Below are positions 1,826 to 51,876 of a stretch of 64,000 nucleotides of DNA, one piece after another. Below the pieces are notes generated by a model that did not search any database, was not told the origin of the DNA, and saw nothing but the letters and a program-made list of their open reading frames with translations. The stretch is from an uncultured delta proteobacterium. Its GTDB lineage: Bacteria; Desulfobacterota; Binatia; UBA9968. A program made the translations under genes and the position numbers. The DNA is taken from the NCBI GenBank assembly GCA_963804165.1, contig CAWDPO010000040.1, forward strand, positions 32,001-96,000. Reading direction: 5' to 3'. Numbering within the stretch: position 1 is the stretch's first letter; each line of letters begins with the position of its first letter.

Positions 1826-1840
1826 TGGCATTTGCATTGC
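1826..1840 (+). promoter_or_regulatory. sigma54 -24/-12 promoter motif
   Basis: TGGCAT-TTGCA-TTGC, ~22 bp upstream of the ATG at 1863. Confidence 0.6.
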
Positions 1841-1862
1841 GCAAGTAAGAGGAGGAGCCGCA

Positions 1863-2390
1863 ATGCGCAACGCGAGATCATTTTTCATAGTTCTATTTTT
1901 GGCCGGCAGTTTCGCGGGCGCATGGCCGGCCATCGCAGCCGAAGTTACTTCGCCGCCGTCGGTCACGAGCAATCCAGTTAACGTTGTGCGGCAAGTTGCG
2001 ATTGCGCTCGCGGCAGCGAGAGACGCTATAGAGGATCTCCGCGGCCCGGCGATTGAGGATTCTAACCTGGACCGGCTCAAGCTTCCCACGCCCGGAATGG
2101 ATTGCGGCATTGCTCGATCCTTGCTCTATGTCGCATGCCACAGCGCTAGGCTTAACAAAAATGAAGCCGAGGCTATGTTCGCCCGAATCATTGATGATGT
2201 GCAGACTGCCTTGCCGTCCGACAGCTGGACACCGGTTGAAGCCGTACCGCACGGTGATTTGATCCGGATTAGAAGTTATTACCATCTGAAGTCCGGCGCC
2301 AAAATCGACATTGACTTGGTGGCTCATCAGCCGGGATGGGCGGCACAACCTCTGTACTGGCTCAGGGTTTACGGGTGGAAAAGGTTTTAA
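1863..2390 (+). CDS. Hypothetical secreted protein
   Basis: AGGAGGAG RBS before ATG 1863; signal peptide ending 'AIAA'; two Cys. Confidence 0.65.
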   Translation: MRNARSFFIVLFLAGSFAGAWPAIAAEVTSPPSVTSNPVNVVRQVAIALAAARDAIEDLRGPAIEDSNLDRLKLPTPGMDCGIARSLLYVACHSARLNKNEAEAMFARIIDDVQTALPSDSWTPVEAVPHGDLIRIRSYYHLKSGAKIDIDLVAHQPGWAAQPLYWLRVYGWKRF

Positions 2391-2789
2391 ACAGCGACTC
2401 ACACTACGAAAACGCAACTCTTGCCAGGCTTGTATGGAGAACCTTTGCGTTTGTGAGTACAGAGGGGAGCAATGACTATCTATACCTTGACTCGTTGTTT
2501 TGTCGTTGATTTTCGTTGGTTGCCAGCACTTCGAATCCAGACACTCGACATCCACGGGGACCGGGGTGATCTGCAAGCCCCAGTGCAGCGAGCAACAAAT
2601 AAACGAGCTGGCGGAGCCGATATTCTGACGCGCCAGACTGGCTGTCAAGCTGTCAGCTAGTCACAGCATTTTTAGGTAAGAGTTAACATTCGGCGATTCA
2701 GTCAAACCCGTTCGACCTAGCTGAGCGCGGCGACAAGATCTTGCCGGTAACAGTAAACAGCGGAACAGCAAGTTAGAAAGGAGCACGCG

Positions 2790-5303
2790 GTGAAAGCACA
2801 AAACCACAAAAGCTCCCGGTTCGCGGGACTGACGGAATCGGAACTGGCCAAGCTGATTCAACAGTATGGTTGCGGCCCTGTGCGGTTTACGGGAACCGAC
2901 GAGGCGCTTTACGAACGCCATCTCATCTTCGACAATGTCATGGACATGACCGCCATCGGCGTTCGCGAACGCTTCGAGGCGATCGCTCACTCCGTGCGCG
3001 ATGTATTGTCGCAGCGCTGGATCCATACGGAAAAGACCTATGAGCATCAAAATGCCAAGCGCGTTTACTATCTCTCGATGGAATTTCTCATCGGCCGCTC
3101 ACTTTCCAACAACGCTACGAATCTTCTTCTCGATCCGGTGGCGAAAGCAGCCATAAAAGAAAAGAACCTCGACTGGTTCGAGTTGCTGGAACAGGAGCCG
3201 GATGCCGGTCTGGGCAACGGAGGTCTCGGACGTCTTGCGGCTTGTTTTCTCGATTCCATGGCAACGATGGAAATTCCGGCCATGGGTTATGGCCTGCGCT
3301 ACGAATACGGCATGTTTAAACAATCCATCCAGGACGGCTGGCAGCGCGAACTGCCGGACAACTGGCTTCGGCGACCCGACCCGTGGGAAGTCGCGCGTCC
3401 GAACGAAACGGTGGATGTAAATCTTAACTGCTCGTTCGAAGTGCGCGGCGGCGCTTTGCATCCGGTTCCCGGTCGTCCATTACGGCTCATCGGTGTTCCC
3501 TTCGATCGCCCCGTCGTCGGCTATGGCGGGAAGACCATCAATACGCTGCGGCTCTGGGCCGCCGCGGCACAGGACTACTTCGACTTCCAGGAATTCAGCA
3601 GCGGTGATTTCGTCGGCGCTTTGGCGGAAACCCTCGGCGCCGAATCACTGACCCGGGTGCTCTACCCCGACGACCACACAACCATGGGGCAGGGCTTGCG
3701 TTTTATTCAGGAATACTTTCTGGTTGCGTGCTCCCTCGCGGACCTCGTGCGCCGTTTTCGCGTGGCCAACTCCGACTGGCACACATTCCCGGACAAAGTC
3801 GCCATCCAGCTCAATGACACGCACCCGACAATCGCTGTGCCCGAGCTGATGCGGATTTTGCTCGACGAGGTTCATCTCGGTTGGGAGGACGCGTGGGTGA
3901 TTACAGTGAAGACACTAGCGTACACCAACCACACGTTGCTGCCCGAAGCTCTGGAGAAATGGCCGGTCGAATGGTTCCGGATCTTGCTGCCGCGTCATCT
4001 CGAGATCATCGAGGAGATCAATCGGCGCTTGCTCGATGACACGCGAGCGAGATTTCCGGGCGATGAAGGTCGGCTACAGCGTGTGAGCCTCATCGAGGAA
4101 GGCGCGGAACGGAAGGTGCGGATGGCCAATGTGGCCATCGCCGGTTCGCACAGCACAAACGGCGTCGCGGCAATTCATTCACAGTTGCTGAAGACAACAA
4201 CAGTCAGAGACTTGGCCGAAATGTTTCCGGAGCGTTTCAACAATAAAACCAACGGCGTCACCCCGCGCCGCTGGCTGTTGATGTCGAACGCCGCTCTCTC
4301 AAAAACCATTACCGAGGCGATCGGTGATGGTTGGATCAAGGATCTCAACCAATTGAAGCATCTGAAAGCCATGGCCGATGATCCCGGTCTTCATGAGGCG
4401 GTCCTCAAGGCGAAACGCGAAGCCAAATCGCAGTTCGCCAATTGGCTCGACCGCACCATCGGCCTGCGCCTGAATCCTGACAGCATCTTCGATTCACAGA
4501 TCAAGCGCATCCATGAATACAAGCGGCAAATGCTCAATGCACTGCGCATCGTCGCGCTTTACAATCGGCTGCGCGAAAATCCACAGATGGATATGACGCC
4601 GCGAGTTTTCTTCTTTTCAGGGAAAGCCGCGGCCGCGTACCATCTGGCTAAACTCATCATCAAGTTCATTAACAATCTTGCCGGCGTGATTGATGCCGAT
4701 CCTCACGTCCGCGGGCGCTTAAAGGTTCTGTTCCTGCCGGATTATTGCGTTTCACTGGCCGAGCGGCTGATCCCCGCGAGCGATGTATCTAACCAGATCT
4801 CGACAGCCGGTTACGAAGCCAGCGGCACGAGCAACATGAAGCTCATGATGAACGGCGCGCTCACGATCGGCACCCGCGATGGCGCAACCATCGAGATGGC
4901 GGAAGAAGCCGGCGAAGAAAACTTTTTCCTGTTCGGGCTGACGGCGGAGCAGGTGGCCGGCTGCCGCGGTTGGTACAACCCGCAATGGCACTATGACAAC
5001 GAGCCGGAAACCCGCGCTGCGCTGGACCTGATTTTTTCCAACCACTTCAGCCGTAACGAACCGGGTGTGTTCGAGCCGCTGCGCGATGCTTTGCTGACGC
5101 ACGGCGATTATTACATGCATCTGGCGGATCTGAAGTCGTACCTGGAAGCGGATGGACGCTTGTGCCAGCTTTACGCCGACTCCGCGGGATGGGCGCGGAA
5201 AGCGATTTTGAATATCGCCGGATCGGGAAAATTCTCCAGCGACCGGACGATTGCCGAATATGCCGCAGACATCTGGAACGTGAAGCCCTGTCCGGTGGAG
5301 TGA
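2790..5303 (+). CDS. glgP: Glycogen/maltodextrin phosphorylase
   Basis: '[21 protein letters not shown]', 'QLNDTHP', PLP-lysine motif '[15 protein letters not shown]'. Confidence 0.97.
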
Positions 5304-5358
5304 AAGGGGCAAGAGCTTCCAGCGGACGGAGAAGGCGTTACAGAACCGAGGTGATTCA

Positions 5359-7011
5359 ATGACGATCCATGCGCTTGCGGGTAAGCCCGCGCCCGAGGAG
5401 CTTCTGGTCGATATAGACAAGCTGCGAAAGGAATACTACACGCGCAAGCCGGACATAACCAACAGCGCAGAGCGGGTTAGTTTTGGCACCAGCGGTCACC
5501 GCGGCTCGTCACTTCGCGGCGGGTTCAATGAGGCACACGTTTTGGCGATCACGCAGGCGATCTGCGAATACCGCAGTCAGCAAGGCATCACCGGCCCGCT
5601 GTACATCGGCAAAGATACGCACGCGCTATCCGGTCCGGCGTTCATGACGGTCTTGGAAGTGCTCGCGGCAAACGGTGTTGAGACCATGGTCGATCGCGTT
5701 GACGGCTATACGCCTACGCCCGTGATCTCTCATGCCATTCTTTCTTATAACCGGGGCCGAACCTCGGGTCTGGCGGACGGTATAGTAATTACGCCGTCGC
5801 ACAATCCGCCGGAAGACGGCGGTTTCAAATACAACCCACCGCATGGTGGACCGGCGGATACAGATGTAACACGTTGGATCGAAGATAAAGCCAACCTGCT
5901 CCTTTCGGGCGAGCTCAAGAGCGTGGCGAGAATCGCTTACGAAAGAGCTCGCCGCGCCGCCACAACCCACAATTATGATTATGTCGGCTCGTACGTACGC
6001 GACCTGGGTTCGGTGGTGGACATGGAACTTATCCAAAGCGCCAAGCTCAAGATCGGCGTCGATCCGCTGGGCGGCGCCAACGTCGCGTACTGGCGCCCCA
6101 TTGCGGAACGTTACGGAGTTGAGGTGGATGTGGTGAACACCACGGTGGACCCGACCTTCCGCTTCATGTCCTTGGATTGGGACGGCAAAATCCGCATGGA
6201 CTGTTCCTCTCCCCATGCCATGGCTAAGCTCATCGGACTCAAAGACAGCTTCGACATCGCCTTCGGCAACGATACCGACAGCGACCGGCACGGCATCGTC
6301 ACTCGTGGCGCAGGCCTGATGAATCCCAATCATTACCTCGCGACGGCGATTTTTTATCTCTTCACCCATCGTCCAGGCTGGCGCCCGGATGCGGCGATCG
6401 GCAAGACCGTAGTCAGCAGCAGCATCATCGATCGCGTGGCTTCTAAAATCGGTCGCGTTCTCGTCGAAGTGCCGGTGGGATTCAAGTGGTTCGTGTCCGG
6501 CCTGCTCGACGGATCGCTGGGCTTTGGCGGCGAAGAAAGCGCGGGCGCCTCATTTCTCCGGCGCGACGGAACGGTGTGGGTGACCGAGAAGGACGGCATC
6601 ATCATGGATCTGCTCGCGGTCGAGATCATGGCTAAGACCGGTCGCGATCCGTCCGAGATTTACCATGAGCTTACGCGCGAGCTCGGCGCGCCGGTTTACG
6701 AGCGCATCGATGCACCGGCGACGGCGGAACAAAAGGCGGTTCTCCTAAAGCTTTCGCCGGAACATGTTAAAGCCTCCGAGCTTGTCGGTGACCCGATTCA
6801 AGCGATGCTCACGAGCGCGCCGGGCAACGGCGCGGCTATTGGCGGCCTCAAGGTTGTCACCGCGCAGGGGTGGTTCGCGGCGCGTCCGTCTGGCACAGAA
6901 GAGGTCTACAAGCTTTACGCGGAAAGCTTTCGCGGGAGCGACCACCTGCGCCGCATCCAGGAGGAGGCACAAGCGCTCATCAGCAAGGCGCTGGCAGGAG
7001 TCATGGGATGA
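5359..7011 (+). CDS. pgm: Phosphoglucomutase (alpha-D-glucose phosphate-specific)
   Basis: 'FGTSGHRGS', catalytic 'TPSHNP', metal loop 'DTDSDRH', 'GEESAG'. Confidence 0.97.
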
Positions 7012-7084
7012 AGCAGGAAGCGTCTGTCACGACAGCACTGCTCCGCAAAATCTCGGTTATACCGAATGGACGTGAGTCACGGAG

Positions 7085-7669
7085 ATGAATATGCCGATCC
7101 AGGAAGTTTATCTCATCCGGCACGGCGAGACGGAGTGGAGTTTGAATGGGCGGCACACTGGCACGACCGACATCCCGCTTACGGAGAACGGCCGGAGGGT
7201 GGCGAAACTTCTGGCGGCGGCGTTGGCCAAGGAAAAATTCGTGCTGGTGTTGACGAGTCCGCTGAAGCGAGCGCGGGAAACTTGCGAGCTGGCCGGTTTC
7301 GGCGCGCGCGCCGAGATCGACCGCGATCTGATGGAATGGAATTACGGCGCATACGAGGGGCTGACGCCCGAGGAGATCCACGCGCAGGCGCGCGGATGGA
7401 TGATTTTCACCGACGGCTGTCCAGGAGGGGAAAGTCCCGCTCAAGTCAGCGCGCGGGCCGATCGGCTGGTCGTGCGAGTCCGCTCGGTGGAGGGAGATGT
7501 CGCCCTTTTCGCCCACGGACATCTTTTCAGAACTCTTGCGGCCCGATGGCTCGGACTTCCCGCGGCGGCCGGAAGTCATTTCCTTCTCGATACGGCGACG
7601 CTGAACGTCCTGAGCTACTACCGAGATGTCCCAGCGCTCAAGCGCTGGAACGCTATGCTCACGTCGTAG
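7085..7669 (+). CDS. Histidine phosphatase family protein (possible sugar-bisphosphatase)
   Basis: 'RHGETEWS..GRHTG.TD.PLT', 'EWNYGAYEG', 'AHGH'. Confidence 0.9.
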   Translation: MNMPIQEVYLIRHGETEWSLNGRHTGTTDIPLTENGRRVAKLLAAALAKEKFVLVLTSPLKRARETCELAGFGARAEIDRDLMEWNYGAYEGLTPEEIHAQARGWMIFTDGCPGGESPAQVSARADRLVVRVRSVEGDVALFAHGHLFRTLAARWLGLPAAAGSHFLLDTATLNVLSYYRDVPALKRWNAMLTS

Positions 7670-7733
7670 GACGAACGTGGAGCGGTACGCACCACGAATA
7701 TGTGACAGCGAATAAACAGTAGGAGGAAACAAT

Positions 7734-8762
7734 ATGGCAACCGATTTAGAAAATACCGCGCGGCTGCTCGTCGCCGGCGCGAAAGGCATATTGGCGGCCG
7801 ACGAGACTCCAGGGACCCTGACAAGACGCCTCGACGCTCTCAAGATCGAATCGACGCCGGATAGCCGGCGAGCCTACCGCGAGATGTTCTTCGCCACACC
7901 CGCGATTGGCGAATTCATCAGCGGCGTCATCATGCAAGATGAGACGATCCGCCAAAAAAGCTCGACCGGAATATCGCTAGCCGATCTGCTGGCGCAGCAG
8001 GGCATCATCCCCGGCATCAAAGTCGATAACGGCGCAAAACCGCTCGCCGGCTCGCCGGGAGAAAACATTACTGAAGGACTCGACGGCCTACGCGAGCGCC
8101 TCAAGGAGTATCGAGACATGGGCGCGCGCTTCGCGAAATGGCGTGCGGTGATCGCTGTAAGCGATACGCTGCCGAGCGCGACCTGCGTGGATGTGAACGC
8201 GCACGCGCTCGCTCGATATGCCGCCCTTTGCCAGGAGCAGGGCATGGTGCCCATCGTCGAGCCCGAGGTGTTGATGGACGGAGCGCACACGATCGAGCGT
8301 TGCGAAGAAGTGACGGGCCATGTCTTGCACGAGGTTTTGAACGCGCTTTTTGATCAGAAGGTCTCTCTCGAAGGTATGTTGCTCAAACCCAACATGGTCA
8401 TCTCAGGTATAAAGTGCACCAGACAAGCTCCCGTCAAAGAAGTCGCACTCGCCACTGTGCGCTGTCTACGCCGGCATGCGCCGGCCGCGGTTCCCGGGAT
8501 CGTCTTCTTGTCAGGCGGCCAAAACCATCTCGTCGCCACCGCGCATCTCAGCGCCATCAATCAGATCGAGGAACCAAGGCCCTGGACGCTCAGTTTTTCG
8601 TATGGGCGCGCATTACAGGACGAAGCGCTCAGGGCTTGGCGTGGAAAGAGCGAAAATCTGAAAGCTGGCCAGCGAGCTTTTTATCATCGGGCCAAGTGCG
8701 ACAGCGCAGCCGCCCTGGGCAAATACACCGAGTCCATGGAAAGCGAGCCAGCGGCAGCTTGA
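7734..8762 (+). CDS. Fructose-bisphosphate aldolase class I (eukaryote-like)
   Basis: 'KGILAADE', 'ARFAKWR', 'VPIVEPEV', Schiff-base 'LLKPNMV', 'FSYGRALQ'. Confidence 0.95.
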   Translation: MATDLENTARLLVAGAKGILAADETPGTLTRRLDALKIESTPDSRRAYREMFFATPAIGEFISGVIMQDETIRQKSSTGISLADLLAQQGIIPGIKVDNGAKPLAGSPGENITEGLDGLRERLKEYRDMGARFAKWRAVIAVSDTLPSATCVDVNAHALARYAALCQEQGMVPIVEPEVLMDGAHTIERCEEVTGHVLHEVLNALFDQKVSLEGMLLKPNMVISGIKCTRQAPVKEVALATVRCLRRHAPAAVPGIVFLSGGQNHLVATAHLSAINQIEEPRPWTLSFSYGRALQDEALRAWRGKSENLKAGQRAFYHRAKCDSAAALGKYTESMESEPAAA

Positions 8763-8870
8763 AGCCAGATAAACCAAGGAGGAGGACACAAAGAAGCACG
8801 AAGGAAAGAATTAGAAAGAAATAAGTGGCGGCAATGCCACAAACCGACGTCAGGAAGAAGGAGTTTTACC

Positions 8871-11318
8871 ATGAACGAACGAACACACGAAATCGAACGT
8901 TATGCCAGGCCAGCCACAGGGCAACCTGAAGCACAAAAAACGAAGGATGCAAGGCGAAATCCATTAAGCGACAAAGAACTGGATCTGATGAACGCCTACT
9001 GGCGGGCGTGCAACTACCTTTCTGTGGGGATGATCTATTTGAAAGACAATCCGCTGCTCAAGGAGCCGCTGAAGAGCGAGGACGTGAAGCACCGGCTGCT
9101 CGGCCATTGGGGCGCGAGCCCGGCACTGTCTTTCGTCTGGCTGCACTGCAACCGGATGATCGTCAAGTATGATCTCGACATGATTTTCGTCGCCGGACCA
9201 GGCCATGGTGCGCCTGGTGTGTTAGGTCCGGCATATCTCGAAGGAACGTACTCGGAAATTTATCCGGACAAGAGCGAAGACGCCGAAGGCATGCAAAAGT
9301 TTTTCAAGCAGTTCTCCTTTCCCGGACACATCGGCAGTCACGTCACGCCGGAAACGCCCGGCTCGATTCACGAAGGCGGAGAGCTCGGCTACAGCCTCTC
9401 GCATGCCTACGGGATGGCGCTCGACAATCCTGATCTCATTGTCGCATGCGTCGTGGGTGACGGCGAGGCGGAGACCGGGCCGCTCGCGACCGCCTGGCAT
9501 TCCAACAAGTTCATCAACCCCGTGCGCGATGGCGCGGTGCTGCCGATCCTGAACTTGAACGGCTACAAGATCGCCAATCCAACCATCCTTTCGCGGATCA
9601 GCCACGAGGAGCTGGAGGCACTGTTTGTCGGCTACGGCTACAAGCCTTATTTCGTGGAAGGAAGCGATCCGACGGAGATGCATCAGAAGATGGCCGCCAC
9701 TTTGGAAGAGGCCATTGGCGAGATACGCGCACAGCAGAAGGCCGCACGCGAGTCGAACAACCCCTTCCGGCCGCGCTGGCCGATGATCGTGCTCCGATCA
9801 CCCAAAGGTTGGACCGGACCGAAGGAGATCAGGGGACACAAGGTAGAGGGCTTCTGGCGCTCGCATCAGGTGCCATTTGCCGATGTCCGCGACAATCCGG
9901 CGAACCTGAAACTTCTGCAAGATTGGATGCGGAGCTACAAGCCCGAAGAGCTGTTCGATGCAAACGGCAAGCTCATTGCGGAACTCAAGGCGCTCGCGCC
10001 CAAGGGCAATCGCCGCATGAGCGCCAACCCGCACACCAACGGCGGGCTCCTGCGCAAAGAACTCAAGCTTCCCGATTTCCGCAATTACGCCGTCGAGGTT
10101 CCGACCCGCGGCACGATCGAATACGAGAATACCAAACCACTCGGCGAATTCCTACGCGACGTGATGAAACAGAACATGACCAGCTTTCGCGTCTTCGGCC
10201 CGGATGAGACCGCCTCGAACAGGCTCCAGGACATTTACAAAGCCAGCAAGAAAACCTGGATGGCCGACCTTCTGCCGGAGGACGATGATGGCGGCGAGCT
10301 GGCGCGTGACGGGCGCGTCATGGAGATGCTTTCCGAGCATACGCTCATCGGCTGGCTGGAGGGATATCTGCTGACAGGGCGGCATGGTTTTTTTCACACC
10401 TATGAAGCCTTCGCTCACGTTATCGATTCGATGATCAACCAGCACGCTAAGTGGCTGGACATCTGTAAGAACCATGTGCCGTGGCGCGCTTCGGTCGCAT
10501 CAGAGAACATTCTGCTGTCGTCCACCGTCTGGCGTCAGGACCACAATGGTTTTTCCCATCAGGACCCCGGTTTTATCGATCTGGTCACAAACAAGAGCTC
10601 GAGTGTGACCCGCGTCTATTTGCCGCCGGATGCCAATACCCTGCTTTCTGTGGCGGACCACTGCCTGCGCTCGACCGACTACATCAACGTCATCGTGGCC
10701 GACAAACAAAAGCACCTGCAATTCACGACCATCGACGAGGCGGTCGTGCATTGCTCCAAGGGGATCGGCATATGGGCGCGGGCGAGCACGGATGCGGGCG
10801 AGGAGCCGGACGTGGTTTTGGCGTCCTGCGGCGACGTGGCGACCATGGAGGCATTGGCCGCTGCTGCAATTTTGCGCGAGCGGGCGCCGGATCTGAAGGT
10901 TCGATTCGTAAACGTCGTGGATCTGTTCAAGCTGCAGCCGGCCTCCGAGCATCCGCATGGTTCCACGGATCGCGAGTTCGACAGCCTGTTCACTACGGAC
11001 AAGCCGATCATCTTCAACTTCCACGGCTATCCGTGGCTTATCCACAAGCTCTCCTACCGCTTCACGGGACACGAAAATATGCACGTGCGCGGCTACAAAG
11101 AGAAGGGCAACATCAACACTCCGCTGGAACTGGCGATGTTGAACGAAACCTCCCGTTTTCACCTGGTCATCGACGTGATCGATCGGGTGCCGAAACTGCG
11201 CACGAAAGCCGCGCACTTAAAGGAGGAGATGAAGAACGCCATTATCGAGAACCTGCGCTACGCGCACGAACAGGGCACGGACCGGCCTGAGCTCATCAAC
11301 TGGACGTGGCCGTACTGA
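8871..11318 (+). CDS. xfp: Xylulose-5-P/fructose-6-P phosphoketolase
   Basis: 'RLLGHWG', 'GPGHG', 'HEGGELGY', ThDP motif 'GDGEAETG', '[12 protein letters not shown]'. Confidence 0.97.
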
Positions 11319-11423
11319 AAGACAAGCGCGAAAACGGAAGTTCCCGTTGACAGTTCAGATTCAGGGTTTGGAACCGGCGCGTTTTTAACACCTGAAGGAA
11401 TCGATTTAGAAAGGTTGTGTACC

Positions 11424-12887
11424 ATGGCTGAAACAAGATCACTGACTAAGGTTCCCGCCGGAGATATTCAACTCGTTCGCTACCTCATGAAGGCCGCGGA
11501 TGGTGACACGGCCTACCGTGATGTTTATCTGCAGCGCGCTGTTGAAAAGTTGGAGCGGTCAATCTCCAGAGCGGATTATGAGCAACTCAAAACGCACGGC
11601 GCGACGGTCGAGCAGCTCCTGCAGGAGACGCGTCGAGCGGTGTCACGGCAGAACTGGACCCGGGTGCAGGAACTGTCGACGCGAGTCTCTGCGCTGCGCA
11701 GCGGGGTTGAAGAAAGGCAATCCGACCTTCAGCTTGCCGAGGCGGTCTATGGAGCGCCGGAAGTGGTCGTGGATCCTTTTTCTCCGGGTCTTGACCTTTT
11801 GCTGGGAAGAACCGCTCAAGCCAACGCCGCGCTGCGCGACGAAGCGGTCGCCGCTCTGAGCGCATTAGAAAAAGCGGACCAAGACATGGCCTCCTTCTAT
11901 GCTGCCAGGCGCGGTCATGTCGCAAAGATAACGATAAGCGCAAGCGAGCCGTCCGCCAGCCCCTCAGCCAACGATGACGATGTCGGACGGCTGCAGCAGC
12001 GTGCCGCCGAAGCGGCCGAGAAGGGCAATGTAGATGAGCTGCAACGCATCGCACAAGAAATGCTCAAAGGTCGCCCCTCCGCAAAGTCCGCCGGTGCCGT
12101 CACCGACCAGAGGACAGCGGCTGAGCGACCAATCGCGTACCCACCTCAATTAGCCGAGCGTTTTCCCGCTGACGTGGTTGAGCGCGCACGCCGGTTCGGG
12201 CTTGCGGAGATGGATATGAAATTCCAGCTTCCCAGCCTTCCGCAGCTCGCACAAGAGACTTTCGAGCGGTATGGCTGGCGCCCATCTTTTCCGGCGGAGG
12301 TAGCGAGGGAAGGGGAACTCTATCTGCGGCCTTTACTAGAGCAGGCGAAGTTTCCCCAAGAAATCGTCGAGCCGCTGCTCGAAGCAGCCATGCTGTTTGC
12401 GCTTCATCCGTTCGTGAACAGCAGCGGCATCCGTTACTTCCCGCTGTTCCCCGATAGCGAAGCCGCGCTCGTCGAGGATTTCGCTGAAGACGCAGTGCCG
12501 CCGGAACCCTCTGAGTTGCTGCGCGCCCTCGGGCTTACGCGCCGTACTGGACTGTCGCGCGCCGAGATCGAAGTCCGCCTGGGACGGAACGGAGCAAAGC
12601 TGCTCAAAGAGGGGCTTGGCGTCGATCCGACGAAGTTCCGCCTCGTCTGTATCCCCTATGATGTTTATGCGCGTGCTGGGCAGGAGCGCCAATGGGGCCG
12701 GCAGCCAAGATGGACTCACGTGGATGGTTACCAACTTTTGAAAGGAGGGAGAATGCGGGCGCTGGTTGCCGGCGATGTCCGCTTTGGCGGTCTTTACGAC
12801 CTGTGCAGCATCAGTCAGTTCGACGGACGTGAAAACGTCTTGGCGCGCTTCGCGATTGTCCATCGCGAAAGGCTGATGGTGCGCTAA
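11424..12887 (+). CDS. Hypothetical protein, ~487 aa (helical N-half, globular C-domain)
   Basis: Long ORF with AAGG RBS between xfp and ackA; no family motif recognised. Confidence 0.8.
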   Translation: MAETRSLTKVPAGDIQLVRYLMKAADGDTAYRDVYLQRAVEKLERSISRADYEQLKTHGATVEQLLQETRRAVSRQNWTRVQELSTRVSALRSGVEERQSDLQLAEAVYGAPEVVVDPFSPGLDLLLGRTAQANAALRDEAVAALSALEKADQDMASFYAARRGHVAKITISASEPSASPSANDDDVGRLQQRAAEAAEKGNVDELQRIAQEMLKGRPSAKSAGAVTDQRTAAERPIAYPPQLAERFPADVVERARRFGLAEMDMKFQLPSLPQLAQETFERYGWRPSFPAEVAREGELYLRPLLEQAKFPQEIVEPLLEAAMLFALHPFVNSSGIRYFPLFPDSEAALVEDFAEDAVPPEPSELLRALGLTRRTGLSRAEIEVRLGRNGAKLLKEGLGVDPTKFRLVCIPYDVYARAGQERQWGRQPRWTHVDGYQLLKGGRMRALVAGDVRFGGLYDLCSISQFDGRENVLARFAIVHRERLMVR

Positions 12888-12906
12888 GCGCGGTGCGGCG
12901 GGAGTC

Positions 12907-14091
12907 ATGTCCGACGCGTTGCTCGTTCTGAATGCAGGTTCATCAAGCCTCAAATTTTCCGTCTTCCTCAATCAAGACCTACCGCAGCCGGTTGTGCGCG
13001 GCCAAATCGAGGGGCTGACCGGTCAGCCGCGGTTCGTTGCGCGCAATGACAGCGCTGTTATCTCACAAAAAGAATGGCCGCCGGAAACACAGCTCGGGCA
13101 CAGCGGCGCCATCGAGTTCCTTTTCACTTGGGGTCGCGGAGGTGCGCTAAGCGGACACCGCATCATCGCGGTGGGTCATCGCGTCGTCCACGGCGGAACA
13201 AAGTTCCATGCGCCCGTCCTCGTCAACCCGGAAACGTTGGCCGAGCTGGAAACTCTTAACCCGCTCGCTCCTTTGCACCAGCCGCACAATGTGGCTGCGA
13301 TTAGAGCGGTGGCGTTGATGGCGCCGAACCTGCCCCAAGTGGCCTGCTTCGATACCGCATTTCACCGCACCCAACCGGCGGTGGCGCAGGCTTTCGCGTT
13401 GCCGCGGCGCTATGCGGCAGAAGGGGTGCGGCGCTACGGATTTCACGGTCTGTCTTATGAATACATCGCCTCGGTGCTGCCAACGATCGACCGCCGCGGG
13501 GCTGAGGGCCGCACCGTCGTGGCGCATCTCGGCAACGGCGCGAGCATGTGCGCGCTGAGCGGCGGTCGGAGCGTCGCTACGACCATGAGCTTCACGGCGC
13601 TCGACGGGCTGGTGATGGGCACACGCTGCGGCGCCATCGACGCCGGCGTGCTGCTTTACCTGATCGATCGGCACGGTATGGACCCCCGCTCCCTGCAGGA
13701 ACTGCTTTACGAAGAATCGGGGTTGCTCGGAGTCTCAGGAATTTCCAGCGATATGCGCACGCTGCTGGCGAGTTCAGAGCCGACTGCCGCCGAGGCGATC
13801 GAACTATTCGTCTACCGCATCAAACGGGAGCTCGGCTCGCTCGCGGCAACTCTCGCCGGGCTCGACACAGTGGTGTTCACGGGTGGCGTCGGCGAAAACG
13901 CGGCTTCCATCCGTGCCCGCGTATGCGAGGACGCGAGTTGGCTTGGACTGGAACTCGATGAGGGCGCCAACGCATCGGGCGGTCCGTGCATCAGCCGCAA
14001 GGGAAGCCGCGTCTCGGCATGGGTGATACCTACGAATGAGGAATTAATGATTGCGCTGCATACGCGGCGCCTGCTCGGCTCGAGGATTTGA
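12907..14091 (+). CDS. ackA: Acetate/propionate kinase
   Basis: 'LNAGSSSLK', 'GHRVVHGG', 'LAPLHQP', 'RRYGFHG', 'FTGGVGEN', 'PTNEE'. Confidence 0.95.
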   Translation: MSDALLVLNAGSSSLKFSVFLNQDLPQPVVRGQIEGLTGQPRFVARNDSAVISQKEWPPETQLGHSGAIEFLFTWGRGGALSGHRIIAVGHRVVHGGTKFHAPVLVNPETLAELETLNPLAPLHQPHNVAAIRAVALMAPNLPQVACFDTAFHRTQPAVAQAFALPRRYAAEGVRRYGFHGLSYEYIASVLPTIDRRGAEGRTVVAHLGNGASMCALSGGRSVATTMSFTALDGLVMGTRCGAIDAGVLLYLIDRHGMDPRSLQELLYEESGLLGVSGISSDMRTLLASSEPTAAEAIELFVYRIKRELGSLAATLAGLDTVVFTGGVGENAASIRARVCEDASWLGLELDEGANASGGPCISRKGSRVSAWVIPTNEELMIALHTRRLLGSRI

Positions 14092-14128
14092 AACGATCGG
14101 GGCGCCGCGGCCACAGGATACCGAAACG

Positions 14129-16195: not shown

Positions 16196-16198
16196 AGT

Positions 16199-16510
16199 AT
16201 GCGCATTGCGATCGGCTCAGATCACGCGGTATTTGATTTGAAGGAAGAGGTGAAAGCCTTTTTGCTCGAAGAGAACCATGAAGTCCTTGACGTCGGCACC
16301 TACAGCAAGGCTCCCGTCGATTATCCCGACTATGCCGAAGCCGTTGCCACAGCCCTGCGCGAAAACCGCGCGGAGCGCGGCATCATTCTTTGCGGCAGCG
16401 GCGTGGGCGCGTCGATGGCGGCGAATCGGATTCCCGGTATTCGCGCCGGTCTCTGCCATGACACCTACTCCGCGCACCAGGGTGTGGAGCATGACGACAT
16501 GAACGTGCTC
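16199..16510 (+). pseudogene. rpiB: Ribose-5-phosphate isomerase B, C-terminally truncated and fused in frame to a tal/pgi relic
   Basis: '[28 protein letters not shown]'; RpiB similarity then stops and the usual C-terminal helices are absent. Confidence 0.8.
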
Positions 16511-16534
16511 ATGGTCCACGGGGATCAGAACGCT

Positions 16535-16789: not shown

Positions 16790-16803
16790 TGGAGTACTGG
16801 AAC

Positions 16804-18616: not shown

Positions 18617-18629
18617 CGGAGGCCGCGTC

Positions 18630-35751: not shown

Positions 35752-35770
35752 AGACTTGTCGCCTGCGACT

Positions 35771-36856: not shown

Positions 36857-36871
36857 GGCAGCTCCTTGCAA

Positions 36872-37273: not shown

Positions 37274-37288
37274 GCAATCGTTATGCCA
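37274..37288 (-). promoter_or_regulatory. sigma54 promoter motif
   Basis: TGGCAT-AACGA-TTGC, ~38 bp upstream of the adh-SDR-hemerythrin-MT unit. Confidence 0.7.
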
Positions 37289-37743: not shown

Positions 37744-37758
37744 TGGCATATCGCTTGC
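37744..37758 (+). promoter_or_regulatory. sigma54 promoter motif
   Basis: TGGCAT-ATCGC-TTGC immediately upstream of yihY. Confidence 0.65.
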
Positions 37759-39069: not shown

Positions 39070-39084
39070 TGGTACGTCACTTGC
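39070..39084 (+). promoter_or_regulatory. sigma54 promoter motif
   Basis: TGGTAC-GTCAC-TTGC upstream of the 39126 ORF. Confidence 0.55.
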
Positions 39085-40739: not shown

Positions 40740-43700
40740 ATGACGATGTCTTCGATCGACAGGCGATCCGCCGAGGTCAAGGAACATGAGCGCCGGGCGG
40801 CAGTTATTCTTGATGGTATGTACCAGTTTGTCGCCCTGCTGAACCCCCGCGGCGATATCCTGGAGGTGAACCGTGCCGCTTTGGAGGGCGCGGGCCATCA
40901 GATTCAGGAGATCCGGGGGAAGCCCTTCTGGACCGCGCGTTGGTGGCAGGTCTCGGAACAGATCCAGGAGGACCTCCAAGTCGCGATCCGGCGCGCATCC
41001 GCCGGCGAGTTCGTTCGCTACGAGGTGAATATCTACGGTGAGCAGTCCGGGCTCGCGCCCATCACGATCGACTTCTCCCTGCAACCGATTCGGGGTGAGT
41101 CCGGCGAGGTCGAATACTTACTGCCGGAAGGCCGGAACATTACCGAGCGCAAACGGGCCGAAGAGCAGGTGGCCAATCAGGCCCAGGAGTTACGCGTCCT
41201 AAACGAGCGCCTCAAGGAGTTGGACCGGCTCAAAACCCAATTCTTTACCAACGTCAGCCACGAGTTCCGCACGCCTCTGACGCTGATGCTCGGACCGCTT
41301 GAAGATGCGCTGGCCAACGCCCACGGCGTTCTCCCCGTGGGCGCAGCCAAGGACTTGGACGTTTCCCACCGCAACGCCCTACGGCTGCTGAAGCTTGTCA
41401 ACACGATGCTGGATTTCTCTCGCATCGAGGCCGGGCGCATGCAGGCCGCGTACGAGCCGGTTGACCTGGCCACCCTCACGGCGGAACTCGCCAGCAATTT
41501 CCGCTCAGCTTGCGAAAAGGCCAGCTTGCGATTGGTCGTGGACTGCCCGCCGCTCAGCGGTGGCGAGCCGGTGTACGTCGATCGCGATATGTGGGAGAAG
41601 ATCGTCCTGAACCTCGTGAGCAACGCCTTCAAGTTCACACTGAAAGGCGAAATCGAAGTGCGCTTGCAGGCAATGGATGGCCAAGCGCGCTTGACGGTGC
41701 GCGACACCGGCGTAGGCATCCCATCTGCAGAATTGCCGCACATGTTCGAGCGTTTCCATCGGATCGAGCACAGCCGCGGGCGCACACACGAAGGCACTGG
41801 CATTGGCCTGGCGCTCGTGCAGGAGCTCGTGCAACTTCACGGCGGAACGGTACGCGCGGACAGCAAGCTGGGCGAGGGAAGCACGTTCATCGTCACCATC
41901 CCTTTCGGCAAGGCGCATCTGGATCCGCAGCGCATCGGCACGGCTTCCGAGCTGGCGTCCACCGCAATCGCTCCGTCCGCCTTCGTAGAGGAGGCGGTGC
42001 GGTGGCTTCCCGAAGCGGAAACGCAAGCGAAGCAAGAAGAGGAGCAGACCTGGACGCCTTCGCTGGCAATGTCTGATCGCGACGTTCCGGAAATTCAGCC
42101 ACAGGACCAGAGCGCCCGCATTCTCTTGGCCGACGATAACGCCGACATGCGCGAATACGTCAGCCGCTTGCTGGGAAAGCGCTTCGACGTGCAGGCAGTT
42201 ACGGACGGGGAGACCGCCTTGGAGGTGGCCCGAGCCGAACCGCCTGATCTAGTGATCAGCGACATCATGATGCCAAGGCTGGATGGGTTCGGCTTACTGC
42301 TCGAGCTGCGCGCCGATCCGCAACTGCGCGAGGTTCCAATCATCCTACTCTCTGCCAGAGCTGGGGAGGAGAGCCGCATCGAAGGCATGGAAGCCGGCGC
42401 GAATGATTACCTGATCAAGCCGTTCAGCGCCCGCGAGCTGCTAGCGCGCGTCGGCGCGCATCTCGCGATAGCTCGCGTTCGCAGGGAAGCCACAGAGAAA
42501 GTCCGGTCAAGCGAGGCCGAACTGCGCGATTTCGTCGAGAACGCCAACGTCGGACTTCACCGCGTCACTTCGGATGGCATTATTCTGTGGGCCAACCAGA
42601 CGGAATTAGATCTATTTGGATACACACGCGAGGAATACATCGGCCATTCTATTGCTCAGTTCCACGTTGATGCTTCGGTGAGTGAGGACATTCTTACCCG
42701 TCTGCGCCGGGGAGAGAGGGTAATCGATCGCGAGGCGCGCATGCGCTGCGAAGACGGTTCGATTCGTCACGTGCGTCATCAATTCCAGCGGGTTTTTCGA
42801 GGACGGTAAGTTCACCCATTCCCGCTCCTTTACTCAAGACATCACCGAACGCAAGTGGGCCCAAAGAGCGACCGGGTTGCTGAGCGCCATCGTCGATTCG
42901 TCCGACGACGCCATCATCAGCAAAGACCTCAACGGGGTCATCACCAGTTGGAACAACAGCGCCGAGCGAATGTTCGGATACACCGCTTCCGAAGCCGTCG
43001 GCCAGCGGATCACCATGCTCATTCCCTCTGATCGACTCGACGAAGAGCCGAAGATTCTCGAGCGGCTCAGGCACGGCGAGCGGATGGACCACTTCGAGAC
43101 GATCCGGATGCGGAAAGACGGGTCCCGGCTGGACATCTCGCTGACCATCTCGCCGGTGAAAGACGCCGATGGTCGCATTGTCGGCGCATCGAAAGTCGCG
43201 CGCGACATCACCGAACGCAAACGGATTGAGCAGCAGCGTCATGAATTCAGGCTCGAGTTAGAGAAACAAGTCCATGAGCGGACCGCAGAATTAGAAAAGG
43301 CGAACCGGGCGCTGCTGAAGGACATGGAGGAGAGAAAAAAGCTCGAAGAGCAGCTTCATCAGTCACAAAAACTGGAGAGCATGGGCATTCTTGCAGCTGG
43401 CGTCGCCCACGACTTAAACAATCTTCTCAACATTATCCAGGGTTACGCTTCTGTTATCGGGCCAGACGCCCCAAGGGACGAGATCGGCGAGAGTGTCGAT
43501 GCCATCACCGAGACCACCAAACGAGGCGCCGCTTTGGTGCAACAGCTTTTGACTCTTGCCCGCAAAACGGAAATCAAAAAAGAGTCTATAGATGTCAATA
43601 CACTTATTCAGCGACTGAGCAGTTTCATCAAGGAAACATTTCCGAAAAACATCGAAACGACGCTGGACTTGTCCCCCATTCTTCCTGCGATCCTGGCCGA

Positions 43701-44073
43701 TGCAAACCAAATGAACCAGGTGCTGCTCAATCTTTGCGTCAATGCGCGCGATGCCATGCCGGGTGGCGGCAAGGTTTTGCTCAAGACTTCGGTCGTGGAG
43801 GAAGAGGGTCTGGAAGTGTATGGCGAGCTGGAGGCAGAGCCGTACGTGTCCATCGAGATCACCGACACCGGCACGGGGATGGACGAATACGTTCAAAGCA
43901 AAATCTTCGAGCCCTTCTTCACCACTAAGGAAATTGGTAAGGGGACGGGACTCGGCCTTGCCGTAGTTTACGGTATCGTGAAAAACCACAACGGATTTGT
44001 TGACGTAACGAGTCAACCGATGCGTGGAACAACTTTTCGTCTGTACTTCCCGAGCATGCGCTCAGAAGGATAA
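40740..44073 (+). CDS. Hybrid sensor kinase PAS-HisKA-HATPase-REC-PAS-PAS-HisKA-HATPase, split by one +1 frameshift near 42774
   Basis: H-boxes 'SHEFRTP' and 'AHDLNN'; G-boxes 'GTGIGL' and 'GTGLGL'; REC 'DIMMP'; PAS reading resumes in the next frame ('VINSSGFFEDGKFTHSRSFTQDITERK'). Confidence 0.9.
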
Positions 44074-44079
44074 TCCGCT

Positions 44080-44496
44080 ATGGACCGCACTTCAGAAAGA
44101 TCCCCGTCGGAAAAACCAGGCCAGGGTCACAAGACCATTCTCATCGTGGAGGATGAACCTCTCATGGTTCGTCTGTTGGAAAGGTTCTTTTCGCGCCACG
44201 GTTACAATGTCTTGGTAGCCTCCGACGGCGAGCAGGCGATCGAAGTGTATTGCCGGTACAAACTGCAAATCGACGCAGTGCTTCTGGATGCTCGTCTTCC
44301 CAAAACCATGGGTGAAGAGGTCTTTCGCAGGATGAAAGATGTGAATGCCGCCGTCAAAGTCGTGATGGCCAGCGGTTTTTTAGAGCCGGAAATAAAGACC
44401 GAGATGACCTTGGCCGGCGTCCAGCGCTTCGTGAATAAGCCCTATATGCTCGATGAACTATTAGAGGTCTTTCGAAGCTTGTTCGCCAACAAGTGA
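44080..44496 (+). CDS. Single-domain response regulator receiver
   Basis: 'ILIVEDE', 'LLDARLP', 'MASG', 'NKPY'. Confidence 0.9.
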   Translation: MDRTSERSPSEKPGQGHKTILIVEDEPLMVRLLERFFSRHGYNVLVASDGEQAIEVYCRYKLQIDAVLLDARLPKTMGEEVFRRMKDVNAAVKVVMASGFLEPEIKTEMTLAGVQRFVNKPYMLDELLEVFRSLFANK

Positions 44497-45298: not shown

Positions 45299-45313
45299 GG
45301 GCATAGCGCTTGC
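45299..45313 (+). promoter_or_regulatory. sigma54 promoter motif
   Basis: GGGCAT-AGCGC-TTGC upstream of the SRPBCC gene. Confidence 0.6.
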
Positions 45314-50119: not shown

Positions 50120-50134
50120 TGGCACTGCTTTTGC
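50120..50134 (+). promoter_or_regulatory. sigma54 promoter motif
   Basis: TGGCAC-TGCTT-TTGC upstream of the 50163 and DUF3309 genes. Confidence 0.7.
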
Positions 50135-50162: not shown

Positions 50163-50372
50163 ATGTTAGGCCAACGCTGTCACGCAATGCACAGCATCCG
50201 TGCGCACCAGGGACTGATAACCGCGGACACGCAGGGAACGATTGAAAGGGAAATCAGCAATCTTGGGAGGCATCTGATCGCGGTACGCTGGGATAACGGC
50301 CTGCAGATGTACGTGTTCCCCGAGGAAATCGAAGTTCATCGGACGATGGACAAGTGGCAAGGATCCCGCTGA
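50163..50372 (+). CDS. Hypothetical small beta-rich protein
   Basis: AGGAGGAG RBS; 'GTI..LIAVRWDNGLQMYVFPEEIE'. Confidence 0.65.
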   Translation: MLGQRCHAMHSIRAHQGLITADTQGTIEREISNLGRHLIAVRWDNGLQMYVFPEEIEVHRTMDKWQGSR

Positions 50373-50434
50373 TGCACGACCCGATCGTCGGTGACTCGGA
50401 ACTACTCAGCAAGCGAGAAGAGAGGAGGTGACCC

Positions 50435-50587
50435 ATGGGAACAATATTACTGATCATCCTGATACTTTTGCTCGTCGGCGCGCTACCGACATGGCCGCAC
50501 AGCTCCGGGTGGGGCTATTATCCTAGCGGCGGCTTAGGTTTAGTGCTCGTCATCATCATTGTCTTGTTACTGATGGGGAGAATCTAA
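50435..50587 (+). CDS. DUF3309-family small membrane protein (not in ORF track)
   Basis: MGTILLIILILLLVGALPTWPHSSGWGYYPSGGLGLVLVIIIVLLLMGRI; GAGGAGG RBS. Confidence 0.9.
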   Translation: MGTILLIILILLLVGALPTWPHSSGWGYYPSGGLGLVLVIIIVLLLMGRI

Positions 50588-50625
50588 ATCGTGAGTGAAT
50601 CTCGGATAACTTGAGCAACATGGCT

Positions 50626-50663
50626 AAAAAAAATGCCCGAGCGGTATGAACCGTTCGGGCATT
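50626..50663. terminator. Intrinsic terminator hairpin
   Basis: A-tract AATGCCCGAGCGGT-ATGA-ACCGTTCGGGCATT. Confidence 0.7.
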
Positions 50664-51002
50664 GGATTACCAATCTATATTGTTAGCCTAAACACGGTTT
50701 TTGGTCTGCTCGAAACAGCAGCCCTCGTGTTCGCCACCCGCGATAGTCAGATATGCTACATCGCCTCGGGTCAAACTTAAAAATCCTTACAAATTTTCAC
50801 GTGCGTTTTTTCTTGCGAGCCGACGCGACGGCATCTTTGAAATGACTCGGCCTGCTTAGAACATTTTTGGGAAGACACTGTCCGGTAGTTACCCAATCTC
50901 GCCAGCGACGGTGTGGGCAATTCTCCATCTCTTTGTTCGGCAAGACCAACAACTCTGCTGTCCAATAAAGTGCAACGATGCAATTTAGAACATTTACCAA
51001 TT

Positions 51003-51017
51003 TGGCATGTTCCTTGT
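51003..51017 (+). promoter_or_regulatory. sigma54-like promoter motif (TTGT variant)
   Basis: TGGCAT-GTTCC-TTGT upstream of the receiver gene. Confidence 0.45.
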
Positions 51018-51117
51018 GTGTCTTAAACGTTATCCGCCGTACGCTCGATCTATAATTAGTAAAGACGGATTGAACGAAAGATCAGCATAAAGCACGGCCG
51101 AGCTTTGTGGAGTCACA

Positions 51118-51480
51118 ATGAATGGTTCGATATTGATTGTTGACGACGAAGAGAACCTGCTAGTACTACTTGCCGGACTCTTCACGAAAAATGGCTTCCA
51201 GGTCAAAACGACCAGCAATGGATATCAGGCACTCAAGCTAATAGATCACGACCCTTTTGACCTGGCGATTCTGGATCTCAAAATGTTTCCTGTTGATGGT
51301 ATCAGGCTGCTCGCCGAGCTGAGGAAACGCTCGCCTTCGACTCGGGTCATCATGATCACAGCGTACCCCACCTCTGACGCCCGCAGTGAGTGCATAAAAA
51401 ATGGCGCTGCCGCGTTACTTCCAAAGCCATTGGATCTAAATCAACTCAAAAGCTTTGCTCAGTCTCTCGCCCCTCGATAA
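51118..51480 (+). CDS. Single-domain response regulator receiver
   Basis: 'ILIVDDE', 'LDLKM', 'MITAY', 'PKP'. Confidence 0.9.
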   Translation: MNGSILIVDDEENLLVLLAGLFTKNGFQVKTTSNGYQALKLIDHDPFDLAILDLKMFPVDGIRLLAELRKRSPSTRVIMITAYPTSDARSECIKNGAAALLPKPLDLNQLKSFAQSLAPR

Positions 51481-51861
51481 AATTTTGCGAGGACTTTGGC
51501 AGGGGAGTTTTCCTAAGCACGACGCGCCGGAGCGAATAACAAGATGTCCATTTCCTTCGTCCGTCATGGGCGCATCTGTGTTTGGCGAGACCTCGCCTCG
51601 CGGGGCGCGGATACGGATGCTCAACCCAGTACGGGTCTGCCAGTCCATCCGACGCAACTTAGATGACGATGCATCGCTGGAAGGGGCAAGATACTGCCGG
51701 CCACCGGTGCCGTAGCGCAACCTCTTGCGCACTTTGCATCTCTCCTTGAACGACTGAACGAGCTTTACTGGGTTGTAAGTGGAAACCTCACATGTCCGAG
51801 TTTCTCGTACCCTGATCTCGAACGCGCCGCCGATCTTCGCTGTAATTACTTCGTTAATCGC

Positions 51862-51876
51862 TGGCATGTTACTTGC
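51862..51876 (+). promoter_or_regulatory. sigma54 promoter motif
   Basis: TGGCAT-GTTAC-TTGC, 30 bp upstream of the BON gene. Confidence 0.7.

Follow-up and report, generated by a model that had tools for sequence, protein, structure and literature searches.

General stress and dormancy programmes are the textbook case of sigma-factor competition (RpoS, SigB, EcfG), and the locus examined here raises the question of whether such genes can instead be placed under sigma54 (RpoN), whose promoters require an enhancer-binding ATPase. It lies in a 64,000-nucleotide stretch, hereafter the window, from an uncultured delta proteobacterium (GTDB lineage Desulfobacterota, Binatia, UBA9968; assembly GCA_963804165.1, contig CAWDPO010000040.1, positions 32,001 to 96,000), in which a preliminary description had pointed out about 12 -24/-12 elements, TGGCAY-N5-TTGC or a one-base variant, ahead of stress-type genes. 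Our analysis assigns a probability of about 0.72 to the reading that these are twelve genuine sigma54-dependent promoters, 11 of them within some 24 kb of a stress-type island of a probably Binatia-like bacterium, with the activator encoded outside the window. We infer both the sigma54 dependence itself, from promoter sequence, and the stress or quiescence theme of the island.

A cluster of -24/-12 elements

The motif TGGCAYNNNNNTTGC (TGGCAY-N5-TTGC) was searched on both strands of the window, with 100 dinucleotide-preserving shuffles as control. Nine exact matches were found (Table 1) against 0.36 expected (s.d. 0.66), and none of the shuffles reached nine, their maximum being three; when one mismatch was allowed there were 17 matches against 8.89 expected, a number again reached by 0 of 100 shuffles. 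The background in real DNA was estimated from 80 loci of other bacteria, belonging to many phyla and obtained by a genome-contig profile scan with an alignment of MscS-like channels. These contain 6 exact matches in 1,300,187 bases, or 0.30 per 64 kb, and the enrichment of -24/-12 sites in the window is about 30-fold. Three variants within the one-mismatch set, at 39070 (TGGTAC), 45299 (GGGCAT) and 51003 (TTGT), complete the twelve sites, for all of which the preliminary description had given the right coordinates and strands.

The same description had placed the elements a short way upstream of start codons and in their orientation, and this applies to every one of them: a start codon follows on the same strand at 15-162 nt in 12 of 12 cases, directly preceded in nine by a ribosome-binding site (RBS) of the GGAG, GAGG or AGGA type. 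With a curated set of 59 genes as reference (78.6% coding), each of the twelve lies between genes, in the orientation of the gene that follows and 10-170 nt ahead of its start, a placement available to 3.9% of position and strand combinations. The remaining one-mismatch matches (35111+, 35863-, 41798+, 49975- and 55451+) all fail this test (0 of 5) and therefore behave like the expected background.

GG plus TTG[C/T] is present in all twelve sites with the GG-to-GC spacing fixed at 10 nt, the full pattern being exact in nine, and the sixth position is T more often than C (8 of 12). Outside the 15-nt core neither the flanks nor the N5 spacer are conserved, which excludes a dispersed repeat element. 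The 5-nt gap between the two elements is incompatible with the -35/-10 architecture recognised by sigma70-family factors, and other promoter classes are not enriched: sigma70-like consensus sites in the island numbered 8 against 10.7 and 8 against 9.5 expected, with only the 29711 site among the twelve overlapping one, and the EcfG-type pattern GGAAC-N16/17-CGTT gave 3 matches against 1.18 expected, all of them inside genes. It is this combination of geometry (GG and GC 10 nt apart, asymmetric, co-oriented with genes), not known to us from any other system, and lack of sigma70 or EcfG enrichment that leads us to take the sites as genuine sigma54 promoters. A scan with a position weight matrix (PWM) trained on the window added no strong intergenic site; its match at 41798, scoring 17.0, sits within a kinase gene.

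Some of the promoters look alike in pairs (27562/37744, 51003/51862 and 28221/50120), sharing the bases that follow TTGC and the larger part of the N5 spacer, e.g., TGGCATATCG[A/C]TTGCGC, which could reflect promoter sub-classes or duplication. The one-mismatch motif at 35863-35877 (-), TGGCACCGTCGTTGT, lies within the 3' end of a short-chain dehydrogenase/reductase (SDR) gene; the two possible start codons of the hemerythrin gene that follows, ATG 35826 and ATG 35751, are 36 and 111 nt further on. The motif could be an internal promoter or background.

Genes behind the proposed promoters

Table 1. Promoter elements (named by position), the genes behind them and other genes of the window. Distances run from the element to the start codon; ORF, open reading frame.
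Feature	Position	Strand	Evidence or remark
P1826, TGGCATTTGCATTGC	1826..1840	+	exact match; ATG 22 nt downstream, GAGGAGG RBS
175-aa protein without family	1863..2390	+	hydrophobic N-terminus (signal-peptide-like by eye); positive coding potential
GlgP, PGM, His-phosphatase, class I aldolase, phosphoketolase, 490-aa protein, acetate kinase	2790..24472, first part	+	
His-phosphatase	7085-7669	+	His_Phos_1
Transketolase, RpiB, MalQ, HAD, PGI, aldolase-like, GlgX	2790..24472, later part	+	
36-aa hydrophobic mini-protein	27425..27535	-	same ends in protein collection; positive coding potential
P27562, TGGCATATCGATTGC	27562..27576	-	exact match; ATG 26 nt downstream, AAGGAG RBS
p101, 101-aa orphan behind P28221	27878..28183	-	conserved family (relatives search)
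P28221, TGGCACTGAGTTTGC	28221..28235	-	exact match; ATG 37 nt downstream, GGAGGG RBS
P29711 unit: hemerythrin-like remnant, DUF6496, SnoaL/DUF4440-like	28761..29677	-	Pfam
SnoaL/DUF4440-like protein	28761-29363	-	Pfam
DUF6496 protein	29360-29548	-	Pfam
29-codon hemerythrin-like remnant	29591-29677	-	begins MDALELLKQDHHKVK
P29711, TGGCACATCTCTTGC	29711..29725	-	exact match
P30080, TGGCATGGGCCTTGC	30080..30094	+	exact match; GTG 58 nt downstream, GGAAGGAG RBS
PG_binding_1 protein, unit 30153..31278	30153-30632	+	PF01471, E 5.9e-13
164-aa protein without assigned family, same unit	30784-31278	+	
P37274 unit: zinc alcohol dehydrogenase (Zn-ADH) remnant, SDR, hemerythrin, metallothionein-like	35129..37236	-	Pfam ADH_N, adh_short, Hemerythrin
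Metallothionein-like protein, 53-aa Cys/His-rich ORF after hemerythrin	35129-35290	-	Metallothio_Pro
Hemerythrin	35290-35751/35826 (two possible starts)	-	PF01814
SDR	35771-36871	-	adh_short
Zn-ADH remnant, frameshifted and truncated	36872-37236	-	ADH_N
P37274, TGGCATAACGATTGC	37274..37288	-	exact match; ATG 37 nt downstream
P37744, TGGCATATCGCTTGC	37744..37758	+	exact match; ATG 15 nt downstream (near-leaderless) or GTG at 57 nt
YihY/BrkB-family membrane protein	37774..38724	+	PF03631, E 7e-55; TIGR00765 above cutoff
P39070, TGGTACGTCACTTGC	39070..39084	+	one mismatch; ATG 41 nt downstream, AAGGAGAGGAG RBS
p70, 70-aa conserved orphan behind P39070	39126-39338	+	relatives search
Small ORFs possibly following p70	39436-39594, 39649-39861	+	
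TonB_C protein, possibly in p70 operon	39881-40339	+	TonB_2
Hybrid PAS-HK-REC-PAS kinase, PAS-HK kinase, receiver-only regulator	40740..44496	+	Pfam
P45299, GGGCATAGCGCTTGC	45299..45313	+	one mismatch; ATG 46 nt downstream, GAGGAGG RBS
SRPBCC/polyketide-cyclase-like protein	45360-45830	+	PF03364, E 1e-23
Charged 165-aa protein behind SRPBCC gene	45840-46337	+	
P50120, TGGCACTGCTTTTGC	50120..50134	+	exact match; ATG 28 nt downstream, AGGAGG RBS
p69, 69-aa conserved orphan (SH3-like fold, predicted)	first gene of unit 50163..50780	+	
DUF3309, second gene of P50120 unit	50435-50587	+	PF11752, E 1.7e-24
44-aa ORF, P50120 unit	50646-50780	+	
P51003, TGGCATGTTCCTTGT	51003..51017	+	one mismatch; ATG 100 nt downstream
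Receiver-only response regulator behind P51003	51118..51480	+	PF00072, E 2.5e-27; absent from the preliminary description
P51862, TGGCATGTTACTTGC	51862..51876	+	exact match; ATG 30 nt downstream, GGAGGGAG RBS
BON-domain protein, lipoprotein-like N-terminus	51907-52299	+	PF04972, E 1.6e-15
HAD hydrolase after BON gene	52308-52979	+	HAD_2, E 1.9e-28

Most of the target families that had been named were recovered with Pfam and NCBIfam (BON, SRPBCC, YihY, DUF6496, DUF3309, the peptidoglycan-binding protein and the ADH/SDR/hemerythrin unit), with two amendments: DUF3309 comes second, not first, in its unit, and the metallothionein-like ORF matches PF02069 over profile positions 5-50 of 51 with E 8.4e-7 and 29.5 bits, under the 33-bit gathering cutoff. 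The hemerythrin (35290-35826) has as its top NCBIfam match the PA2171 family of ribosome-binding persister proteins (NF053874), with 67 bits against a cutoff of 190; it does not qualify as an equivalog of that family, and its sequence at most hints at a role in quieting translation. The leader between P29711 and the DUF6496 gene is 162 nt long and contains a 29-codon ORF in which 12 of the first 15 residues (80%) are identical to the hemerythrin start at 35751, followed by divergence and a stop; the ORF seems to be what is left of a second gene for a hemerythrin, formerly driven by P29711. In the P37274 unit the reading frame of the Zn-ADH gene shifts close to its start, at six consecutive A; the gene stops behind the GroES-like domain (116 aa), where it abuts the SDR gene, and could be either a pseudogene remnant or an assembly indel. 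The p70 operon possibly extends to 40339. The receiver-only regulator behind P51003 has its top NCBIfam matches in receiver domains of activators of the AtoC/GlrR/ZraR/NtrC type, all far under their cutoffs.

The small orphan ORFs deserve separate consideration, since the motif had been said to mark them as genuine, and the three examined (3 of 3) do turn out to be conserved families. The p69 protein (50163) has 44 relatives at 70-88% identity; p70 (39126) has 165 relatives, with 58-84% identity among 120 listed, several of them named Candidatus Binatia bacterium; and for p101 (28183) the search gave 51 cluster representatives at E≤1e-3, including 16 at E≤1e-10. All three lack a Pfam family, and neither Pfam nor NCBIfam matched the 175-aa protein behind P1826 or the 36-aa mini-protein behind P27562. 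The exact sequence of the 175-aa protein is present in the protein collection, in a 90% cluster of 4 members from 4 contigs, and 8 of 10 ORFs with the chosen RBS-supported starts have identical ends in the public collection. The structure model of p69 predicts a small all-beta domain (mean confidence, pLDDT, 87.9) with a generic likeness to SH3-like folds (TM-scores of 0.6-0.7 at E≥0.016, none significant), and that of p70 is too poor for use (pLDDT 57.7). At least 7 of the 12 first genes encode a hydrophobic N-terminus or a membrane protein on inspection of their translations, which fits the proposal, as put forward in the available part of its source, that sigma54 mainly controls the cell exterior (PMC3162934). 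The p101 domain also recurs as a module in proteins of 1500-5200 aa, with 5-17 tandem copies in giant proteins of 2000-5200 aa from other metagenomes (relatives P0302, P0303 and P0317).

Proposed mechanism and its alternatives

On the reading that we favour, sigma54-RNA polymerase would form a closed complex at each TGGCAY-N5-TTGC element and fire only upon activation of an AAA+ enhancer-binding protein (EBP) encoded beyond the window. Transcripts would begin about 12 nt after the GC, which predicts leaders of about 4-50 nt in ten units; that of the receiver-only regulator would measure about 90 nt and that of DUF6496 about 150 nt. The units would supply mostly small products, many of them probably located in the envelope (BON lipoprotein, peptidoglycan-binding protein, YihY, DUF3309 and the hydrophobic mini-proteins), along with SRPBCC, DUF6496, SDR, hemerythrin, metallothionein-like and receiver-only proteins and the three conserved orphan families. 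More than one activator, or one that does without a fixed enhancer, would be involved, because no common upstream site emerged from the searches described below.

Several observations weigh against this reading. Domain scans of 88 ORFs plus 14 further ORFs of the window found no Sigma54_activat domain and no rpoN or sigma54 domains, and a regular expression for GAFTGA had no match in six frames of the 64 kb, so that the check for rpoN and EBP genes advised in the preliminary description came out negative for both within the window, which covers 64 kb of a 230-kb contig. In the 10 non-redundant upstream regions, Gibbs sampling yielded a marginal palindrome, CGAAA-N8-TTTCG (information content 10.7 versus ≤9.7 in shuffles), which is not enriched (GAAA-N8-TTTC has 4 matches against 2.1 expected), and an exact enumeration found 0 of 19,200 dyads in three or more of the 10 regions. 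The P29711 element can also be read as a sigma70-like TTGGCA-N17-GATAAT with a score of 10/12. At the position following TTGC, where the sigma54 consensus has t or W (TTGCt, TTGCW), the twelve sites show no A at all and eight of them have G. The target genes are present in 0 of the 80 fetched loci, none of which is syntenic with the window; the PWM was trained on the window, which makes its statistics circular there; and the stress labels of the targets derive from family names.

Known activator sites fared no better in the window. NmpR-type GCGCA-N5-TGCGC gave 70 matches with up to two mismatches against 70.95 expected, those beside promoters being two-mismatch matches that overlap the -24/-12 cores themselves (27560, 37746 and 37757), and an NtrC-like consensus was at chance level. 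Individual palindromes exist at three promoters only (1757-1774, 29983-30002 and 38919-38949), each of them different. Given the lack of a common upstream site, a single classical enhancer is less likely than a set of several activators or an activator that can do without a fixed site. Among the 80 loci, three single cases are supportive as anecdotes: in the closest relative (L062, channel 63% identical) a perfect motif precedes, by 35 nt, an 82-aa orphan next to the channel gene; in a Deltaproteobacteria metagenome-assembled genome (MAG; L050) a perfect motif lies 25 nt before a tandem universal stress protein (USP) gene at 18784-19726 (+), with a GAFTGA-type activator at about 21.3 kb (-), an estimated 1.6 kb or so past the end of the USP gene; and in L054 a perfect motif lies 112 nt before the channel orthologue.

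How far, then, can the claim be upheld that here the stress response is wired to sigma54? The -24/-12 geometry, the roughly 30-fold enrichment and the placement before stress-type families speak for it, and its extension to one general-stress regulon is not supported by Gibbs sampling, pattern tests, dyads or known consensus sites. That all twelve promoters answer to one master activator, with sigma54 replacing RpoS, SigB or EcfG as the general stress and dormancy switch, seems to us unlikely. It would account for the crowding of 11 sites into about 24 kb, for the coherent stress and envelope flavour of the targets and for the lack of EcfG-like enrichment; the receiver-only regulator under one promoter and the PAS kinases of the island resemble the multi-component NmpRSTU relay, and the adjoining glycogen-to-acetate cluster parallels, to the extent that the available accounts cover it, the storage and stress region PA2134-PA2190 of Pseudomonas aeruginosa. 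The same proposal has to contend with upstream regions that share no site in any of the searches, with palindromes that differ from promoter to promoter, and with a 64-kb window that contains no activator. A bolder version, which we hold to be more doubtful still, would make sigma54 the stress and quiescence sigma factor of this lineage, one signal switching the whole island all-or-none through an enhancer-independent activator or an RpoN variant, a type of response beyond the reach of RpoS/EcfG-type competition. The signal could perhaps be oxygen or energy limitation relayed by the PAS kinases of the island to an activator that lacks a DNA-binding domain and acts from solution; a dedicated RpoN variant would be in keeping with the unusual G that follows TTGC in 8 of 12 sites; the glycogen-to-acetate pathway might be co-induced by read-through from P1826; and ribosome-quieting proteins could be among the products.

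The other alternatives concern the nature of the sites. It is very improbable that the motif is the operator of a conventional regulator, transcription starting from nearby sigma70-family promoters and the -24/-12 likeness being coincidental: such a view could appeal to the absence of rpoN from the window, to the sigma70-like promoter at 29711 and to the base after TTGC that deviates from the usual A/T, but an operator would hardly be asymmetric, always co-oriented and within 15-162 nt of a start in all twelve cases, coincide with the sigma54 consensus wherever that is conserved, keep the GG-to-GC spacing exactly, and leave sigma70-like sites unenriched and overlapping at one site only. A trifle less credible again is that sigma54 holoenzyme binds the sites in mostly silent or regulatory fashion, as poised or occluding complexes. 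Genome-wide mapping in Escherichia coli has revealed widespread sigma54 binding beyond classical promoters (PMC4591121), and no enhancer was found upstream of the window sites; however, the E. coli sites are described as largely intragenic, in the part of that study available, whereas those of the window are without exception intergenic, co-oriented and shortly followed by a start codon, in most cases with its RBS. Chance, base composition or a dispersed repeat can practically be dismissed: about five one-mismatch matches do behave as background, but the shuffles, the rate in 1.3 Mb of real genomes, the unconserved flanks and N5 spacers and the placement test refute such an origin for the twelve.

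Relation to known sigma54 and stress systems

The core of the window promoters is that of the sigma54 class (TGGCAC-N5-TTGC type with its 10-nt spacing of GG and GC, placed ahead of genes and in their orientation), from which they differ by the preference for T over C at the sixth position, by the G after TTGC and by the lack of a visible activator gene or shared enhancer. In Desulfovibrio vulgaris, the published consensus is tGGcacg / tTGCt, and 87 sigma54 promoters, 37 EBPs and 5 stress operons have been described, with one EBP labelled 'general stress response', next to 108 sigma54 promoters in Geobacter sulfurreducens, according to the portion of the study at hand (PMC4641369). As proposed for the window, sigma54 controls many non-nitrogen functions in these deltaproteobacterial sigmulons, stress operons included. 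There, however, most EBP regulons comprise 1-4 operons, each with its cognate site, unlike the 11 promoters in about 24 kb without a recognisable site found here, and the target families, as far as that portion names them, differ from those of the window.

Another parallel is the NmpR sigma54 regulon of Myxococcus xanthus, which is induced by hypoxia through a multi-component relay and includes a CBS protein, a USP, cbb3 oxidase, HemN and hemerythrin (PMC11841059, in the available part). Both systems have several intergenic sigma54 promoters on small stress-type genes, hemerythrin among them, and the NmpRSTU relay contains a hybrid kinase and a receiver-only protein, as do the genes of the window. 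The two differ in other respects: the NmpR site is not enriched here, the kinases carry PAS domains and no protoglobin, and the window has no CBS, USP, cbb3 or HemN targets and no NtrC-like regulator. A 2025 survey predicted, for Planctomycetia, enrichment of sigma54 promoters before UspA (COG0589) and MscS (COG0668) genes and, in the part available, also noted high EBP counts in Myxococcota and Desulfobacteria (PMC12316311). Like ours, that is a computational inference of stress families behind sigma54 promoters in a non-model phylum; BON, DUF3309, DUF6496, SRPBCC and YihY are not among the families named in that part. The island has an MscS-type channel of its own, whose gene lacks the motif, in contrast to the L054 orthologue with its perfect one.

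The PA2134-PA2190 region of P. aeruginosa places glgP and other glycogen genes beside small stress proteins, including PA2171, a hemerythrin-domain persister protein that binds ribosomes and FtsZ and whose regulator is stated, in the accessible text, to be unknown (PMC9262955, PMC13041383). Glycogen genes, stress genes and a hemerythrin-domain protein thus occur together in both, with the reservation that the hemerythrin of the window scores 67 bits against the 190-bit cutoff, and the accessible text on P. aeruginosa reports no sigma54 link. The region counts as RpoS-controlled. The window families too are generally regarded as RpoS-, SigB- or EcfG-controlled in model bacteria, with loose support in the literature as far as it was available. 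The products of these regulons are similar to those of the window (uncharacterised small proteins, envelope proteins, osmotic-stress proteins and the products of storage-carbohydrate genes), and the available part of an EcfG regulon table contains GlgX and DUF proteins; the promoter type differs from the -24/-12 elements seen here. Since sigma54 needs an ATP-driven activator, it would provide a strict on/off logic, independent of sigma-factor competition.

Our literature search returned no described link of sigma54 with the BON domain, OsmY or desiccation, and none of DUF3309, which itself went unmentioned, with a general stress response; the terms sigma, glycogen, phosphoketolase and dormancy are absent from the Binatota genomics paper. 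Stress genes under sigma54 have been described or predicted before, as discussed above, and the idea is less unprecedented than the preliminary description implied. What would be new are the target families and the lineage for a sigma54-dependent stress regulon, its unity as a single regulon being a hypothesis. If the favoured reading is true, the island would be run by sigma54, with ATP-dependent activators as its gate and next to no basal expression, and a widespread soil lineage without a cultured member would follow a different control logic for entry into quiescence. The promoters are also a cheap annotation handle, as they correctly flagged three unannotated small-protein families as genuine genes. 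A scan of the full genome with them could define a Binatia-like stress sigmulon and point to its activator and signal, and the finding would gain weight if that genome showed one activator and no RpoS- or EcfG-type system.

Genomic context of the island

None of the signalling genes of the island at 40740..44496 has an output domain; a link between these kinases or the receiver and the promoters is conceivable. Upstream, the island is adjoined by a co-oriented 22-kb cluster (2790..24472 (+), Pfam) that would make up a glycogen-to-acetate route by way of phosphoketolase and acetate kinase. The PWM scan found no sigma54-like site inside it on the + strand, and we treat it as context only and do not count it as a part of the proposed regulon. 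P1826 lies 960 nt upstream of glgP (start 2790), and in the gap at 2391-2789 neither a recognisable terminator nor an RNA structure out of the ordinary (z = -0.01) was seen; transcription from P1826 may run on into glgP. Between the phosphoketolase and acetate kinase genes, the 490-aa protein at 11415-12887 (+) has good coding potential and no Pfam or NCBIfam family.

The MscS-type channel of the island has its nearest named relatives in Candidatus Binatia or Deltaproteobacteria MAGs, with 58-64% identity over most of its length, and unnamed matches reach 79% identity, which makes a lineage assignment on these grounds tentative. The G+C content of the stress island (26000-56000) is 50-56%, except for one 2-kb bin at 59% over a kinase gene, and that of the sugar-cluster core (6-18 kb) is 58-62%; the contrast may stem from an abundance of short genes and spacers or from a separate origin. 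Rfam and tRNA scans of the window gave no matches.

Directly after a second YihY gene, an Hsp20 ORF of 79 aa (48499-48738 (+)) begins at position 18 of the alpha-crystallin profile and is apparently a truncated or minimal small heat-shock protein. The segments 46400-47560 and 48700-50100 contain minus-strand ORFs only, with weak or negative coding scores and no family matches, and may be non-coding or decayed DNA; a terminator-like hairpin with a strong 13-bp stem lies at 48838-48867. A non-ribosomal peptide synthetase cluster (56432-63998 (-)), in which no sigma54-like site was found, continues past the right end of the window and encodes condensation, adenylation, carrier, thioesterase and TubC-type docking domains.

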